Positions 56,479 through 64,000 of a stretch of DNA of 64,000 bases are shown one piece after another. The translations under genes and the position numbers were made by a program. Source of the stretch: Podospora anserina (lineage: Eukaryota). The stretch lies in contig CM030333.1 of assembly GCA_017654855.1 (NCBI GenBank), positions 372,001 to 436,000 on the forward strand. Reading direction: 5' to 3'. Under the pieces are notes generated by a model. The model saw only the letters and a list, made by a program, of their open reading frames with translations, was not told the origin of the DNA and made no database searches. Within the stretch, counting starts at the first letter, position 1, and every line of letters starts with the position of its first letter.

Positions 56479-57371
56479 GGTGGGCGAATCTGCTTTCTTT
56501 TGTCTGGCGGAAATCTCGAGGTTCTTGTCGTCGGCGAGTGTGAGTTTGTTGGGACAGATATCCTGTTCAATATTTTGGCGGTCGCATTTGTTTCCTCGGA
56601 CGTTGAAGAGGGGCAGTTGAAGAAAGTGGGATGGATCATGGAGGGGCAGAAATGTTACCCACTTGATCTGCCCGCCCACGCGGAGCTATGTAATGCTGTG
56701 GAATGGGCTATGCCCGATGCAAGGGGAAGACTTGGTGTCTGTAACGTTTAAAAGACCGTTTATCTCTCTCTTCTTCTTTTGTCTTTACCAAACTTCTCCA
56801 GACCTTGTCCCACATACGCTTAGTGGCTTCGGAAGGCATCCAAGACCTACGATTGTTTGTCCTCTCGAGTCGGCAAGCCCTTCCGATGTGAAGCACTCTC
56901 TTGATAAACTTCAGCACGACCTGATCCACCACACTTCGAACTCCCATCCTTTCAAAGATCAGAGGACATCTATCATCATCAGCGAGGACTGCGAATATGA
57001 AGCATCAACCGAGGAACCGCCAACAGCATCGCGGGGTTCTCAAGCGGCAGAATGTGATGACGCTCGGCGGCTCGCACCCCTGTCGGTGCGGGCGGTGAGG
57101 TCACCACCTCTCACAGCCAGAAAGCAGGAAACATGTGCCTGGTCCAGGGTTCGGGTCGTTCGGTGGTGGTGAGCGGGGGACAATCAAGTGACGTTCCAGC
57201 AGCCACTGTCTTTGCAATCACACACCAACGAGTGAAAAAAGCCCAGCCATCTTTCTTCCTGGCTTCTGATGGTTCGAAAGACGCCAACAATGTCATGTCG
57301 TTCACCTACCATGCCCTGAGAAATTAAGGAAGCAGCGCAGTAATCCAGGCACACGCACCACTACTGGCAAA

Positions 57372-58193
57372 ATGACAGCGGTTGCCAACACATCAGCGGG
57401 CCTCGGCGGGGACAGCTATGCCCAACAGTGGATCCTCATGCTGGCCCTTACTACCCTCGTCCTCTCGCTGGCCATCCTATCGCAGTTTGCAACCTGCTAT
57501 GCAAGAGCCTACATTGATGCGCCCAGCGAGGTGTCTGCTTTTCTGGATGCCATCGATAGCTCTATCGCCGAGAACGAGTCCTACGACCATGATATCGCCA
57601 AGGTGAAGCGGTTTGACGATAAGCTGCGGCTGGGGAAGTTGTTGCGCGACATTCAGAAAGCAGGGGACGTGCTGAGAGAGGCGCTTAATGCGTTGATGGA
57701 AGAAAGGGAGGGCGAGAAGAGGGCAGCCCAACTACGGACCGGCGCGAGATTACTATGGGCTAGTCACCGACAAGAGTTGGAGGATAAAGTGCGCCGGATG
57801 GATCTGTTGAGGATGCGGTTTCTGGTCGTGCACATGGGGATTATCTCCAGTATGGCAAGTGACATGGCGGCAATGGCGAGCAGGACGAATGGAATGGCTA
57901 TCAATGCGAGCACCAGACGAGAGTCGTCACAGAGGCCACTGCCGCCGGCAAGCCCACCTTTGACACCTGAGCCACCACCCTTACCACCACCGCTACGCGC
58001 GTTTACAGATTCGCCCATCAAGTCCAAGCCACCTTTGAGGAGGCTAACGGTACATTCGATGGGCCATCCAGAAGCAATAGAGGTGCCGCATCGAACGGGG
58101 TGGGCAGGTGTAATGCAAGAGCTTCAGAGAAGCCCGGTATTGAGAGAGAGGCACGCCAGCATCGAGCTTGCCATGTCTCGAGCGGTTTGTTGA
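57372..58193 (+). CDS. Fungal hypothetical protein: N-terminal hydrophobic helix, helical core, Pro-rich tail
   Basis: 273-aa ORF starting in a good context (aaaATG), with protein-like composition. Confidence 0.7.
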   Translation: MTAVANTSAGLGGDSYAQQWILMLALTTLVLSLAILSQFATCYARAYIDAPSEVSAFLDAIDSSIAENESYDHDIAKVKRFDDKLRLGKLLRDIQKAGDVLREALNALMEEREGEKRAAQLRTGARLLWASHRQELEDKVRRMDLLRMRFLVVHMGIISSMASDMAAMASRTNGMAINASTRRESSQRPLPPASPPLTPEPPPLPPPLRAFTDSPIKSKPPLRRLTVHSMGHPEAIEVPHRTGWAGVMQELQRSPVLRERHASIELAMSRAVC

Positions 58194-58605
58194 CGAACTG
58201 TTATGAATACATACGACATCTTGACGATTATGATCATTACGACCTTTATGACATTCCAGCATTCGGCGTTCGCGTCAGCCAGCTTCATTCAAAAATGGAA
58301 GAATGGTGGAATAGATCTATAGCGATGTTGATGGGTGCTGGCAGGATTGGTTTGGCAGTTGTTTGTCTGGTGTACTTTGACGAGATACCCTTTTTAGTCC
58401 CTTTTTCCGGTTGTTCGAGCAACAAAGCACATGTTCCGTTATATGTCATGCGGGCATCATATAGGTTCGACATTCTGGTTGATCTGTCTTCACTTTGAAC
58501 TCTTCAGTACTTGTATAATCACCATTCCATTGGTGGCTTTAGATGTATACAGGTCTCTTGAGATGTAATTGTACAATCACACTTATACACAACTGCATCG
58601 TCCTT

Positions 58606-59305
58606 CTAGTGAGCAGCATCGGGACCTGTTCCGTTTCTTTCGCCAACTGTTTTGTTTTTGTCAGCATAACCGCCACCCAGCTGGAAAATGGAGCGAAAAC
58701 CTACCATCAAGAGCAACCAAGAACCGACTGACACAGTTGTAGCACGCAACCTGTTATGTTGTTAGCTGTTTTGTTGCATTGTTGTTTCTCAGGTAAAAAA
58801 CAAAGCTTACAGTAGCAGTGATCTCAACCATCTCCTTGTCGCTGAAGATCTCCCTCATCTTGGCAAACGTCTCATCCCTCACCTGAACGTTTCTTGTCAT
58901 CTCATCCGTATAGCAAGTAACAGCCCACTGCTTGTCCGTAAGCTCGGCATGCTTCTGGGTCTCACCCAAAACGAGAGGCTGCTCAGTCTTGATGGCGTTC
59001 ATGCCCTCCTTGCTCACACCACCCTGCTCGGCGAGGGGAGCATGGTGAGCCCACTCATACCAGGCCCGGTTGACAACGGCAACGCGGGAGATGGCAATCT
59101 CACGAAGGTCCTGAGGGATGGTGGTCTTGGTGCGGACCGCGCCGAGGAAGGAGTTCCAGCCGTCAGCAACCGGGGGTGAATGAAGGAGGGTGAGATCCAA
59201 GGGTTGAAGGGGACGGGGGTGGCGGCGGGTCTGGATGCGCTGGACGATCTCAGCCTCCTCTGGGGTGGCCGTTGGGGGTGGGTCGGCGATGTAGGGGAGA
59301 CGCAT
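58606..59305 (-). CDS. Carboxymuconolactone decarboxylase / AhpD-like protein; introns 58810-58751 and 58704-58647, plus a 5'UTR intron 59425-59347
   Basis: Motifs MRLPY, LDLTLLHSPPVADGWNSFLGAVR, REIAISRVAVVNRAWYEWAHH and VEITAT|VACYNCVSRFLVALD|VGE. Confidence 0.9.
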
Positions 59306-61514
59306 TTTGCGAGTTTGATATTGGGGATAGGGGATATCTTGTTTACCTAAGAGTCAGTACTTGTATAAACATATGAAGCTCGAGTCATTCTCATCTTGTG
59401 ATGAGAGACAGCAGGTAGCACTTACAACAACGGGAGTTGCCTAATCGAGGTCTGAGACAAGGCCTGAGAATGGAGGTTACCTTCATGTGAGCTCACCTTT
59501 GAGAGGAAAAGAGAAAGATCAACAGTGATTCAGACAATGTGGACAAGGGCCCGGCAACGGCAACTGATGTCATCCCCACATTGCCGGTTCCGCAGCGGGT
59601 GACGGCGGGACAGAGCGGAGGTTTAGTGCGGGGGTATCCACCCCCTTTGCTGTAGCGGGACCATGTTCGGTAAGTATTTATTTACTTCGGCTTCAACTCT
59701 TTTCTAAATCTTGACATGGAAATACATGAGACACCGGATGACCAGATTATATAGGGCTTTCTTGCCACGATGCTGTTCACAAGGACTCAGAAGCGATTCG
59801 AAGCTTGATTTCCTAGGTACACATTCATTTCTCTTGTGAAGTACTGTTCGTGGCCCATCTTCCCAGTGAGCTTCAAATGACAGTCTTTGTTACTGTGTGT
59901 CACAAGGGGAACTTACACATATGATTCCGCTTGAAATTGGAATAACTTCCGCTTCACCACCACACCTTTTGCAAAGTTTGTGGAAAAGAGGCCTCTCTGC
60001 CTGGTAACTTTTCTAAGCACAAACTACTTCGATAGCCATTTCTATATTCAACACTTCTCCTTGATAGCTTGGTCTTTTATCTTGAACAAATTTGAAAACA
60101 GTGATTAAAGGACAATGTCCACAAAAGAGATATGAATGACTTGGTATATACATAATTAACTGACACACACGCATTACTCGCATGCCAATGACATTAGATC
60201 TCAAGCTTGCATCGATGGGGTCTCAAATGGTCGTTGAAGCCGGCATGCGCTTGCAGTTACTCACCGGGCCGTGGGCATTTCCTTTGAACTGGAAATGGAA
60301 GTGGCTCCCAAGTCACTGGGGAGCATGAACAGGAAGGTCATTTCCAAGATCAGCTGTACCGGCGTCAAATACCCCCCGAGACCCGCCTCCTGGGTAGGCA
60401 AGCGCAGAGAAGCTCCTTCTCTGGTATGTGACAGACTCAGCAAAGTGATGCTCTGGTGTTCCCAAACCTTCTCTCCTCTCCTCTCTTCCACCAATTCATC
60501 ACAGAGCGAAGTTGGGATTTCCAGCCCTACATAGCCAACTTGCCCACTCCCGGCCTCCTCTCTTCTTTTTTGGGTACATTGTGACATATTGTCTTTACCG
60601 GCATCCTTCATCAATCTGGCCTTGCCTTGTTCCACCTTGTGAACACCACCTGAGCGTTTTTTTGGGAGCGAGCGAGCGATCGAAATCAAATCACAACTGC
60701 ATGAATCATCTTGGACGACCGAGCACTACAATTGCCAATATAAAGAGGCTCGATACCTTACCTCCCCATCTTCTTTGCCGTCTCTATTGTGTTTTGGACT
60801 GGTCTCTCGGCACGTAATATTCCCGTCTGATACCTGGGTGCCTGGGCTGCGTAAAATTGGCTGCGAGTTGTCTTAAGAGAAGACTGAGGAGCTTTGCACT
60901 GGAGGGAGGCATTTCAAAGCCAAGACCACTCTTCAAACTGCTATTATTGGCTCAATTTTACAATCGACGACATCATCAGCTTGGTTTCCGGGGCCAAGGG
61001 CAGGATAGCTCTCGCCATTTTGGTCACATCTTGCTGTCAACACAGGACCAATTTCCTGGCGGCTGGGAAAACCCCTCGTCTCCCTTCCTAGGCAACTGTC
61101 TTTTCAACCTGACCACAAGCAGGAACAATTTCTTTGTCTCTCCTCAACTAGCAAGCTTCCTGGCAAGTTCGTCAACCATCTAGCTTGGAACAACTTCAAC
61201 GATCTCGCCTCAGTACAACTTGGTGTGAGGCTTCTGAAACGTTCAACTGGCTGGCCATCTTCTGGTTGACCATACTCTGTAAGTCTTCTCATACTTGGTG
61301 CTCCCCATTCTCCAATGAATCAGGCCTTTCAGTTGATGATTCACTGGGGGTTGATCCTCTTTTGGCGAGGATATTGAGAGATGATCCGAGGATTGAGTCC
61401 ATCTGGGGATATCTGCAACAACGTCAGCTAACCAAGGATTGAAACAGTCTACTGCCGTCACTCATTCCTCTCGATTTTAATCTTGGTCCTCCGATCGGAC
61501 TTCCCAACATCAAC

Positions 61515-63863
61515 ATGCTTCTTCCACGCCACTCAAGCAAAATCCAGCCTCATGGCTCCCAGGCCACCACTAGGCCAAGTCGGCTGAGATCTCCTGGTCT
61601 TCGGCTCAAGACAAGTTCGCTCGATCTTATTCCTTCAGATGAGAAGGCCCAGGCGATGGCTTCAGCCGACTGGAGAAAGATGGCGCCGGATTCTGGCCTC
61701 GGCGATAATCGTCAGCAGATTTCAGACGAGAATAGCAGACATCCATCCGACCAGAATGATGGCTTTTACTCGCCCTTTGTGCTGGGGATGAAGCCTATGA
61801 ATACTGGATCAAGGGCTCAGTACCAGTATGCTAGGGACCCTACAAGCGGCATTGCTTGGGAGGTCATTTCATCGGCTCCTGGGTGCGATTTCAGGCGGGA
61901 GGAAACGAGAACCAGCGAGTCGTCAGGCATACCGTCCTCAATCCTCAAGGCGTGCCAACCGAACCTCCAAAACACCACGATGGTGCGGCTTAAGGCCATC
62001 AAGCCAATGAACGTGAGCATCAACGGCGACATCATCAAACTGCCCAACAAGTACTCTTTGGATGTTACCCCTGTTGACATCCAAGAGCCAGACGCTGCTT
62101 GCTTTATGAACAGGGAACACGGCGAGATCCTGGCCACTCTCAAGCTCCTCAAGCCCAAGGCCCGCTTACGCCGTATGAAGTCCGAGCTTCACGAAGAGAG
62201 CGTTCTGAAAGATCTGGATGACTTCTTGTCCCAACAGAGTGGGAAGCCTCCAAAGGTCGTCGCGGCAAGCAAGGAAGCTCAACGCCAAAACCGTAGGTCA
62301 TCGGGGCATTGGAGCAGCCATGACTCTGGAATCTCAACCAGTTCTGAAACCTCTGGCCTTCAGAAAGAGATGCCTTTAGGGGCACATCACCGAACACCTG
62401 CGGAAGGTCACCGCTTTCAGACACTACTCAGCCGCCTACACTTGACCACGGAGACAAGAGAAGCTTCCCAGCCGCCGACAGCACCTGATCATGCTGAGAC
62501 GTCGAAGAGCCATGCTCAGGTGGTGGATCCTGCAATTATCGCCGCAAAGGTCAAAGACGAAGAGCGCGAGGAGACGCCCGACAACTCGGAAAGGGGCGCG
62601 CGCGAAGGTACCTTTTTCGGAAGGGATTCTACCTTGCTGTTTGGGAAGGGTAAATGGGCGCAAAAATCACACGATTCTGGCTATTCAACATTCCATTTCA
62701 TGAAGCAGGGCACACAAGAACCAACAAGGCCCAAGGCGGTCGAGCATTTTGGTCCTACGGTTCAGAAGCGCAAAGAAGATTCAACATCATGTTCAACCAC
62801 CTCAACCAAGTTGAATCCCACAGCTGCCGAATTCAAGTCGGTCACCAAAGGTGACCTCAAGTCAGGGGTGAAGAGCGATTTCAAGCCCGCGCCTGCAGCT
62901 TATCCTGCCCCTCCCTGGACTCCAAAAAGACGGACACGGCCTTTACTCAACAATATCTTTCCTGGTGTACTGGAAGATCCCGGTTTCATGGCCCAGACAG
63001 TGCCATTTGTGGCAAACGATTGTCTTCAAGGTAGTCCATGGCAGACAAGTGGTCCTCCAACAGGGCCAGTGTGGGTGGCTGAACCGGGACAGCCTATCCC
63101 AGAGATGGCCTTCCAACCACCAGTAGCACCAATAGCAATGGCACCTCTTCCCATTGTTGATCCAGTTACGCAGCAGTTGGTCCCACCACCCTTCGCTCCT
63201 CCGCCCAGCAACTTTGGAACCTTCCCGCCTTCCGGAATCGCTCCTATTGCCAGCCAGATGCCAGGTCCCAACCCCGTATTTAGCACGCTTCCTCCATTGC
63301 GGCCTCCCCCAGCCCCCAGACCAAGATTTTCTCAGCCTATCCCGATTCCTCCTGGGCAAAGAGCCCCTATGCCCGCCGTGCCGAATGCAACTAGCTTCCA
63401 AGCACCTACTCTATACGGTCCAACTCTTGTTGCCGGTCCACCGCCTCCTTTGGCCTAGGATGGCAAGGGACCACGACCGGTATTTCCCGTCACCCAGAAA
63501 CCACGAGACCATGACCCTGTGAAGCAGCAGGCATATGAATCGTATCTGGAGTGGCGAAAGGCCAATGAGCCTGGCTATCACATGAAGTGCAAAATGCGTC
63601 AAGCACACCGTGTGGTTCGTCAATACCAGCAACAGGCGCAGACTGCTGACTGGAAGACCGTAGCTGGGCAGGCCAAAGCAGCAGCTGGAGCGTTGGAAGC
63701 ACATGCAGCCGAGGAAAAGAGGAGGTCAAAAGAAGCAGCTCTCAAGGAGCAATTCAAAATGAGTGTGAAGAGGGTAGCAGAGTCCTCTGGAGCCACGGAG
63801 ATAAAGGAACAAACACTTCCGGACACGAATAATGAAAAGCAAACACAAACATTGGTCATATAA
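61515..63863 (+). CDS. Hypothetical protein with PAM2-like motif and Pro-rich region, interrupted by one in-frame TAG (63456-63458); 782 aa if the stop is recoded
   Basis: ORFs 61515..63458 and 63519..63863 are in the same frame (offset 2004 nt), separated only by TAG. The read-through gives ...PPPLA*DGKGPRPVFPVTQKPRDHDPVKQQAYESYLEWRKANEPGYHMKCKMRQAHR... Confidence 0.75.
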
Positions 63864-64000
63864 AGCACACGATGACGAAAAGAGGGATATGCCCGTTTGC
63901 TCCGGAATACGATTCTTGTCATTTCGAAAGCTCGCTCGCTCAGGACAATTCTTTTCAACAGTTAGCAACCTTCGTTTCCGTTCCCCATCTTATTATATTG

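Follow-up and report, generated by a model that had tools for sequence, protein, structure and literature searches.

The closest described systems are the premature-stop-correction (PSC) pseudogenes of Fusarium graminearum. In these 71 genes, one in-frame UAG with U at position -1 is edited to UGG (PMC10776026; the PUK1 case is reviewed in PMC11156358). According to Qi et al. (2024; PMC10776026), the PSC stops often come from non-Trp codons and arise repeatedly, and 50 of the 71 products have disordered regions. Reports on the enzyme and the developmental stage in this fungus (bioRxiv 10.1101/2023.10.18.562923, PMC11156358, PMC11169179) point to Tad2-Tad3 with the cofactor Ame1 and to fruiting bodies. 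PMC9600606 reports that more than 62% of the edited sites of F. graminearum lie in predicted hairpin loops, that the bases at -1 and +1 outrank structure, and that structure is the weaker factor at sites with preferred flanks. It is debated whether PSC editing is adaptive (PMC10776026) or tolerated; PMC13431901 reads it as harm-permitting and not adaptive.

Does Podospora anserina have a site of this type? The window analyzed here is a stretch of 64,000 nucleotides of P. anserina DNA (NCBI GenBank assembly GCA_017654855.1, contig CM030333.1, positions 372,001 to 436,000 of the forward strand), and positions are counted from its first letter. The coding region of PODANS_2_400 lies on the plus strand at 61515..63863. 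From the ATG at 61515, a 647-codon ORF extends to a UAG at 63456..63458 (plus strand), and the frame remains open for 134 further codons, up to the TAA at 63861..63863; the UAG is the single internal stop of the frame, as codon 648 out of 782. The product has 647 residues if unedited and 782 if edited, and no Pfam family was matched above the cut-off. A protein search of the species' own genome found the gene to be single-copy. In RNA, A63457 (context C-U-A-G-G-A-U) appears as G, which turns the codon into UGG (Trp). Very probably, the UAG is a PSC site at which A63457 is deaminated and a 782-residue product with Trp648 is made.

Further features of the gene lie upstream of the stop. The 5′ leader has a real intron of 169 nucleotides at 61279..61447 on the plus strand (GTAAGT ... 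CTAAC ... CAG), whose joint, 61278>61448, is present in the sequencing run X1. The 670-nucleotide spliced leader covered by X1 has a sole upstream ATG, which opens a 38-codon upstream ORF at 60701..60817. Both protein forms contain a PAM2-like motif (KLNPTAAEFKSV) at residues 432-443 (62808..62843, plus strand). PAM2 motifs link proteins to the poly(A)-binding protein and usually end in Pro; the conserved LNPxAAEFKS found here has a Ser at the position of the usual final Pro. The L, N, P, A, and F are invariant in the 17 aligned homologues, while the match to PF07145 is below the Pfam cut-off (E 0.02, 15 bits versus a cut-off of 20). As judged from its sequence, the motif suggests a link of PODANS_2_400 to the poly(A)-binding protein.

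Contigs assembled from four (X1, X2, X3, and X11) of 24 listed runs were compared with 57000..64000. These are assembled contigs and not raw reads, and they drop minority forms, so that the editing level and a rare spliced form are not visible in them. None of the listed runs is on record as RNA; X1 was judged to be processed RNA because the leader intron is removed in it. One X1 contig, at a depth of 186, is uninterrupted and free of joints over 62233..64000 and differs from the window there in a single letter, A63457G; G is the majority form at this position in X1. Over about 4.3 kb, X1 differs from the window at two positions, 63457 and 61811, and each of these differences is A>G when read along the sense strand. 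X11, which is DNA-like and comes from a different sample, has A at both positions. A depth-3 contig of X2 has A at 63457, and X3 has no contig over this position. A read-through protein is also on record: P0076 (782 residues) equals the translation of the window except for *648W and occurs on 4 contigs, the longest of 5,301 nucleotides. The source of P0076 is most likely runs other than X1, since the X1 contigs are broken inside the ORF.

Alleles can mimic editing, and X11 is another sample than X1. A genomic TGG allele in the strains used for the RNA runs would give the same G at 63457, and the difference at 61811 could be an SNP. Nevertheless, such an allele is very improbable. All 18 contigs of the four stop-ended Logan proteins (P0075, P0077, P0078, and P0079; longest contigs 46-82 kb), which include variants with 13-16 substitutions, end at the UAG at 63456..63458, whereas the Trp form occurs only on contigs of 5.3 kb or less. 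Moreover, the stop is common to Triangularia setosa, and the two differences in X1 are of the same type and strand. The second A>G in X1 (61811, plus strand) is a synonymous change of Ser99 (TCA>TCG) in the context U-C-A-A-G-G-G and is predicted to lie in a stem; the C at -1 and the stem fit editing or a strain variant equally.

Some contigs of X2 and X3 concern the neighboring genes. A long minus-strand spliced contig of X2 and X3 over 57000..59337 runs from a gene at 58754..59353 across a plus-strand ORF at 57270..58193, which possibly reflects antisense overlap or the merging of convergent transcripts. The 3′ end of PODANS_2_400 (63632..64000) is entered by contigs of X3 (from 63632) and X2, the rest of the gene being barely covered, and these contigs possibly represent the 3′ end of a convergent neighbor.

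The public model of PODANS_2_400 (P0070, 684 residues) removes the stop in another way. It is reproduced with no differences when 63165..63458 is spliced out of the window, that is, with a 294-nucleotide intron on the plus strand that has the donor GTTACG, has no CTRAY branch point, and ends on the TAG itself. The same skip, from IVDP to DGKG, is found in nine public models (P0001-P0004 and P0070-P0074), covering six species of the Podospora complex including P. anserina as well as Cercophora samala, Apiosordaria backusii, and Triangularia verruculosa. Splicing of this segment would be supported by its annotation in all of these species, by the GT-AG ends, and by the maintenance of the reading frame. 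However, the gapless X1 contig runs through the segment with no joint, and the acceptor is covered by a contig of X2 as well. All four introns observed as joints have a GTA(A/G) donor and a CTRAY 15-20 nucleotides from the end, and the 98 skipped codons align with the coding sequence of homologues. With the read-through protein P0076 also on record, it is extremely improbable that the stop is removed by splicing, and the intron is most likely false. The preliminary description had argued for editing rather than splicing with a hairpin around the stop as its support; the editing part holds, on the strength of the RNA assemblies and the poor intron signals, while the hairpin adds little, as described below.

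What does the stop cut off? At 63477..63623 (plus strand) lies the best-conserved motif of the family, PxFPVTxKPRDxDPxKQQxYExYLEWRKANEPGYHxxCKxRQAxR, which is translated only when the stop has been corrected. At E<=0.001, the family numbers 192 representatives, with named members in genera including Chaetomium, Trichoderma, Cladobotryum, and Fusarium. Among 25 sequences, 37 columns are invariant, and every one of them is inside this C-terminal motif. AlphaFold predicts two helices for the motif (mean pLDDT 82); the C-terminal tail has no PDB match at E<=0.001 in Foldseek, no Pfam match, and no usable ESM Atlas hit. Four short family members (P0104, P0143, P0160, and P0170; 58-76 residues) consist of the C-terminal motif alone; they may represent additional split genes or fragments from contig edges.

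The 647-residue protein might instead be the real product, with the tail a decaying remnant and the editing neutral and harmless. This would be in line with the many F. graminearum PSC genes that have no reported requirement, editing being essential for 16 of the 71 according to PMC10776026. It is nevertheless improbable, because the tail is 92-97% identical among four stop-bearing models of the Triangularia clade (74 aligned residues; the 92% is for P0001, over a wider region) and retains all 37 invariant columns of the family, and because G is the majority form in X1.

The stop itself has a limited distribution. T. setosa P0068 ends with ...GPPPPLA, at the same residue as the Podospora stop, and the codon is inferred from the acceptor position to be TAG also in the other species with the modeled skip. 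By these gene models, the stop appears to be common to the Triangularia clade, cutting off the best-conserved motif of the family. The amino acids flanking the stop are conserved among the stop-bearing orthologues. Among 83 homologues examined, 35 are free of gaps at the stop position, where they have Pro (20), Ala (10), Ser (4), or Val (1). Since these residues stand there, the edited Trp is not ancestral. The idea that editing restores an ancestral Trp was rejected, as the 12 residues preceding the RPxFxV motif contain no Trp in any of the 83 homologues. Of the 35, 28 have Gly just before the site and none has Gly in the position following the Lys; the window has Ala and Gly at these two places. 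The codons for this Ala and Gly make much of the stem of the hairpin described below, which gives a post hoc hint of hairpin-linked change.

The 16 metagenome loci found are all distant, and the stop was seen in none of them; in 15 of the 16, the gene has no in-frame stop ahead of the motif (the pattern did not catch L008, and 4 are short upstream). In the metagenome folding, which omits L005 and L008, the base aligned with A63457 lies in a hairpin loop in 4 of 14 loci, three of which are one near-identical sequence misaligned by an indel.

A second stop may exist in the sister lineage. The Cladorrhinum-type models P0207 (Cladorrhinum sp. PSN259, which has a separate tail model, P0100) and P0069 end with ...APTLYGPA, ten codons upstream of the Triangularia stop (equivalent to 63426..63428 of the window). 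Three more models from the Cladorrhinum side (P0024, P0022, and P0020) have gaps over the stop region, and P. australis reads through both stop positions. The Cladorrhinum end may mark another premature stop in this gene, placed independently of the first. It is conceivable, though unlikely, that all of these observations belong together. The linker before the motif would then be a recurrent editing gate, with two sister lineages of Podosporaceae gaining stops independently and at a distance of ten codons, behind ...PPPPLA in Triangularia and behind ...TLYGPA in Cladorrhinum. The Triangularia changes from Gly to Ala before the stop and from Ile, Leu, or Pro to Gly after the Lys would have been selected for an RNA hairpin and not for the protein, and the Trp would be non-ancestral.

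Is the edited base selected by RNA structure? The preliminary description placed the UAG in the loop of a hairpin formed by the 25 nucleotides at 63446..63470 on the plus strand (UCCUUUGGCCUAGGAUGGCAAGGGA). The sequence is as it stated, and all nine of its base pairs are valid; the 9-bp stem has a 6-nucleotide loop, UAGGAU. Yet this is one of two competing folds. In the rival hairpin (63443..63464, plus strand), 63443..63449 pair with 63457..63464 around a 7-nucleotide loop, and the target A63457 closes the loop with U63449. When 63440..63475 is folded, the UAGGAU-loop hairpin has -11.2 kcal/mol, a value equaled when the G63452/G63453 bulge slips by one base, versus -9.2 kcal/mol for the rival. 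With ±30 nucleotides (63427..63487), the UAGGAU-loop hairpin is the minimum free energy (MFE) structure, at -23.3 kcal/mol and with a probability of 0.90. In this fold, it lies inside an outer 8-bp helix (63431..63482, plus strand; 63431..63438 with 63475..63482), which favors it. The z-score of the ±30-nucleotide fold is -1.86, and 9 of 200 shuffles equal it.

In contrast, the fold of 63420..63500, which the preliminary description had proposed as a check, has the rival hairpin as its MFE structure (z -1.55, 14 of 200 shuffles) and not the UAGGAU-loop hairpin. Here the A63457-U63449 pair has a probability of 0.88 and the UAGGAU loop 0.05. Across 100 windows with flanks of 15-60 nucleotides, the probability of the UAGGAU loop exceeds 0.5 in 16, with a mean of 0.21, and the rival wins most of them. 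At 37 °C, the UAGGAU loop has a probability of about 0.7 in windows of 601 and 1,001 nucleotides and 0.02-0.08 in windows of 301 and 401 nucleotides. Folding the edited (G63457) sequence leaves the hairpin probability about unchanged. The hairpin presenting the UAG can form, but the folds do not show it to be a dominant structure or one clearly above chance.

The chance expectation was assessed in two ways. First, 800 other UAGs of the 879 in the window, on both strands, were folded with ±30 nucleotides. Hairpin loops contain 256 of the 800 (32%); 62 are in hairpins with nine or more pairs, and 37 in hairpins at -10.5 kcal/mol or better. Second, the flanks were re-coded synonymously 1,500 times by the codon usage of the window. 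When ±30 nucleotides are re-coded, the A lies in a hairpin loop in 632 draws and in an equally stable one in 95, and the whole fold is at least as stable in 424. When ±12 nucleotides are re-coded, the A is still in a hairpin loop in 1,399 draws. The local stability of the hairpin is roughly in the top 5%, which is borderline. In the sequence, four of the nine pairs connect bases at first or second codon positions, which are fixed by the amino acids, so that the peptide P-P-L-A-*-D-G-K-G itself builds much of the stem. Because a third of unrelated UAGs are also in predicted loops, the hairpin is weak evidence. Setting the 62% of F. graminearum sites against the 32% of controls, a comparison across species, would give a likelihood ratio of about two-fold for editing. 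As an independent proof of editing, the hairpin was rejected, being weak against the control UAGs and the re-codings and dependent on the folding window. It is real but marginal and, alone, unsurprising.

Editing at A63457 may therefore be real while the hairpin is incidental, a by-product of the Pro-Pro-Leu-Ala and Gly-Lys-Gly codons, with the site determined by the flanks and nothing else. Such a reading is a form of the PSC explanation and compatible with it, and I regard it as evenly poised. The four amino-acid-fixed pairs, the ±12-nucleotide re-codings that keep the A in a loop, the ±30-nucleotide re-codings that are as stable, and the lead of the rival fold in most windows, with the UAGGAU loop dominant in 16 of 100, all speak for it. 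So does the greater weight of primary sequence over structure, more so with preferred flanks, in PMC9600606. On the other side, the hairpin is the MFE structure under the ±30-nucleotide convention of that same paper, and such local stability occurs in only 37 of the 800 control UAGs and 95 of the 1,500 re-codings.

Other A sites of the gene bear on both sides. By the definition of preferred flanking bases in PMC9600606, A63457 (C,U,[A],G,G,A,U) has five of the six preferred bases at -2 to +4, including the U at -1. It is the only site read as G among 56 A sites with U at -1 covered by X1, and its ±30-nucleotide fold is the most stable of 57 listed sites. Five other sites with U at -1 have five or six preferred bases; at four of these no stable hairpin is predicted, and at none of the five does X1 show a G, which argues against the hairpin being incidental. 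One site, 62378, has all six preferred bases and lies in a hairpin loop at all three flank sizes (robust, although weaker), yet it stays A in X1, which argues for it. Position 61811, predicted in a stem but G in X1, likewise speaks against a contribution of the hairpin.

The preliminary description had also likened the site to the anticodon loop of a tRNA. Among 30 tRNA loci returned from the genome, tRNA-Thr(AGU) combines a 5-bp stem with the loop CUAGUAA, and the UAG site resembles it in the linear pattern C-U-A-G-N-A-N, with CUAGGAU matching in 5 of 7 letters. The likeness is upheld for the sequence and fails for the predicted geometry, since, unlike the anticodon arm with A34, the predicted loop of the UAG site has 6 nucleotides and its C is paired. 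A true mimic of the anticodon arm (5-bp stem, 7-nucleotide loop, A third) was rejected in the folding model: the 7-nucleotide register has a probability of 0.0004-0.008 and -1.5 versus -10.5 kcal/mol, a cost of about 9 kcal/mol.

The PSC reading suggests the following course of events. Unspliced mRNA would be deaminated (A-to-I) at A63457, and the edited codon, read as UGG, would give a 782-residue protein with Trp648 and the conserved two-helix motif. In other stages, the unedited mRNA would give the 647-residue protein, which lacks the motif, or would be degraded. By analogy with F. graminearum, the enzyme may be Tad2-Tad3 with the cofactor Ame1, and editing may be confined to fruiting bodies, which would make the stop a developmental switch. 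The choice of the site probably depends mostly on the neighboring bases (U at -1, G at +1, G at +2, and A at +3), and the hairpin may be a metastable helper that exposes the A part of the time. That the hairpin measurably raises editing seems to me slightly less probable than that it does not. If unedited mRNA bearing the stop decays, G at 63457 could also become enriched with no help from structure. DUF726, the family of Ame1, matches three loci of the genome, a match at the family level only. Two of the matches have in-frame stops (L049, G000:C1:1204017-1204859, with one TGA and one TAG; L050, C1:4787449-4788042, with one TAG), which are probably introns. A preprint on a sexual time course of P. 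anserina (10.1101/2024.12.09.627484) mentions regulated ADAT genes; its main text contains neither the PODANS_2_400 locus tag nor the term "stop codon".

These results correct a gene model common to at least nine public annotations and give P. anserina, a model fungus that is harmless and easy to cross, a PSC site with good support. The two competing folds, together with several synonymous stem positions, make the site a handy test of the share of structure in fungal editing. Should the Cladorrhinum stop prove to be an edited UAG as well, the same switch would have evolved repeatedly at different codons, which would bear on the debate over adaptive versus tolerated editing (PMC10776026 versus PMC13431901). 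Searches for papers on the A63457 site, which covered main texts, found none; the search by locus tag is a weak negative.

How does PODANS_2_400 compare with the known systems? With regard to the hairpin-loop preference of Tad2-Tad3(-Ame1) (PMC9600606; bioRxiv 10.1101/2023.10.18.562923), the site is alike in the ±30-nucleotide fold and in five of six flanking bases, and it differs in that the hairpin at 63446..63470 changes with the folding window and has a competitor in which the target A is paired. AMD1 of F. graminearum (FGRRES_10094; PMC5496914) likewise has its edited UAG inside a wrongly predicted intron. However, AMD1 is an MFS membrane protein with the stop near the 5′ end, whereas the stop of PODANS_2_400, at codon 648 of 782, removes the terminal motif only. 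Like the F. graminearum PSC genes as described in PMC10776026, PODANS_2_400 encodes a hypothetical, largely low-complexity protein and has a lineage-limited stop, which may have come from a non-Trp codon. Unlike them, it is in Podospora (Sordariales), belongs to a family with no Pfam domain, and is known here from sequence and RNA contigs. The edited stop of PODANS_2_400 is well supported and belongs to the known PSC class, and the site itself is new.
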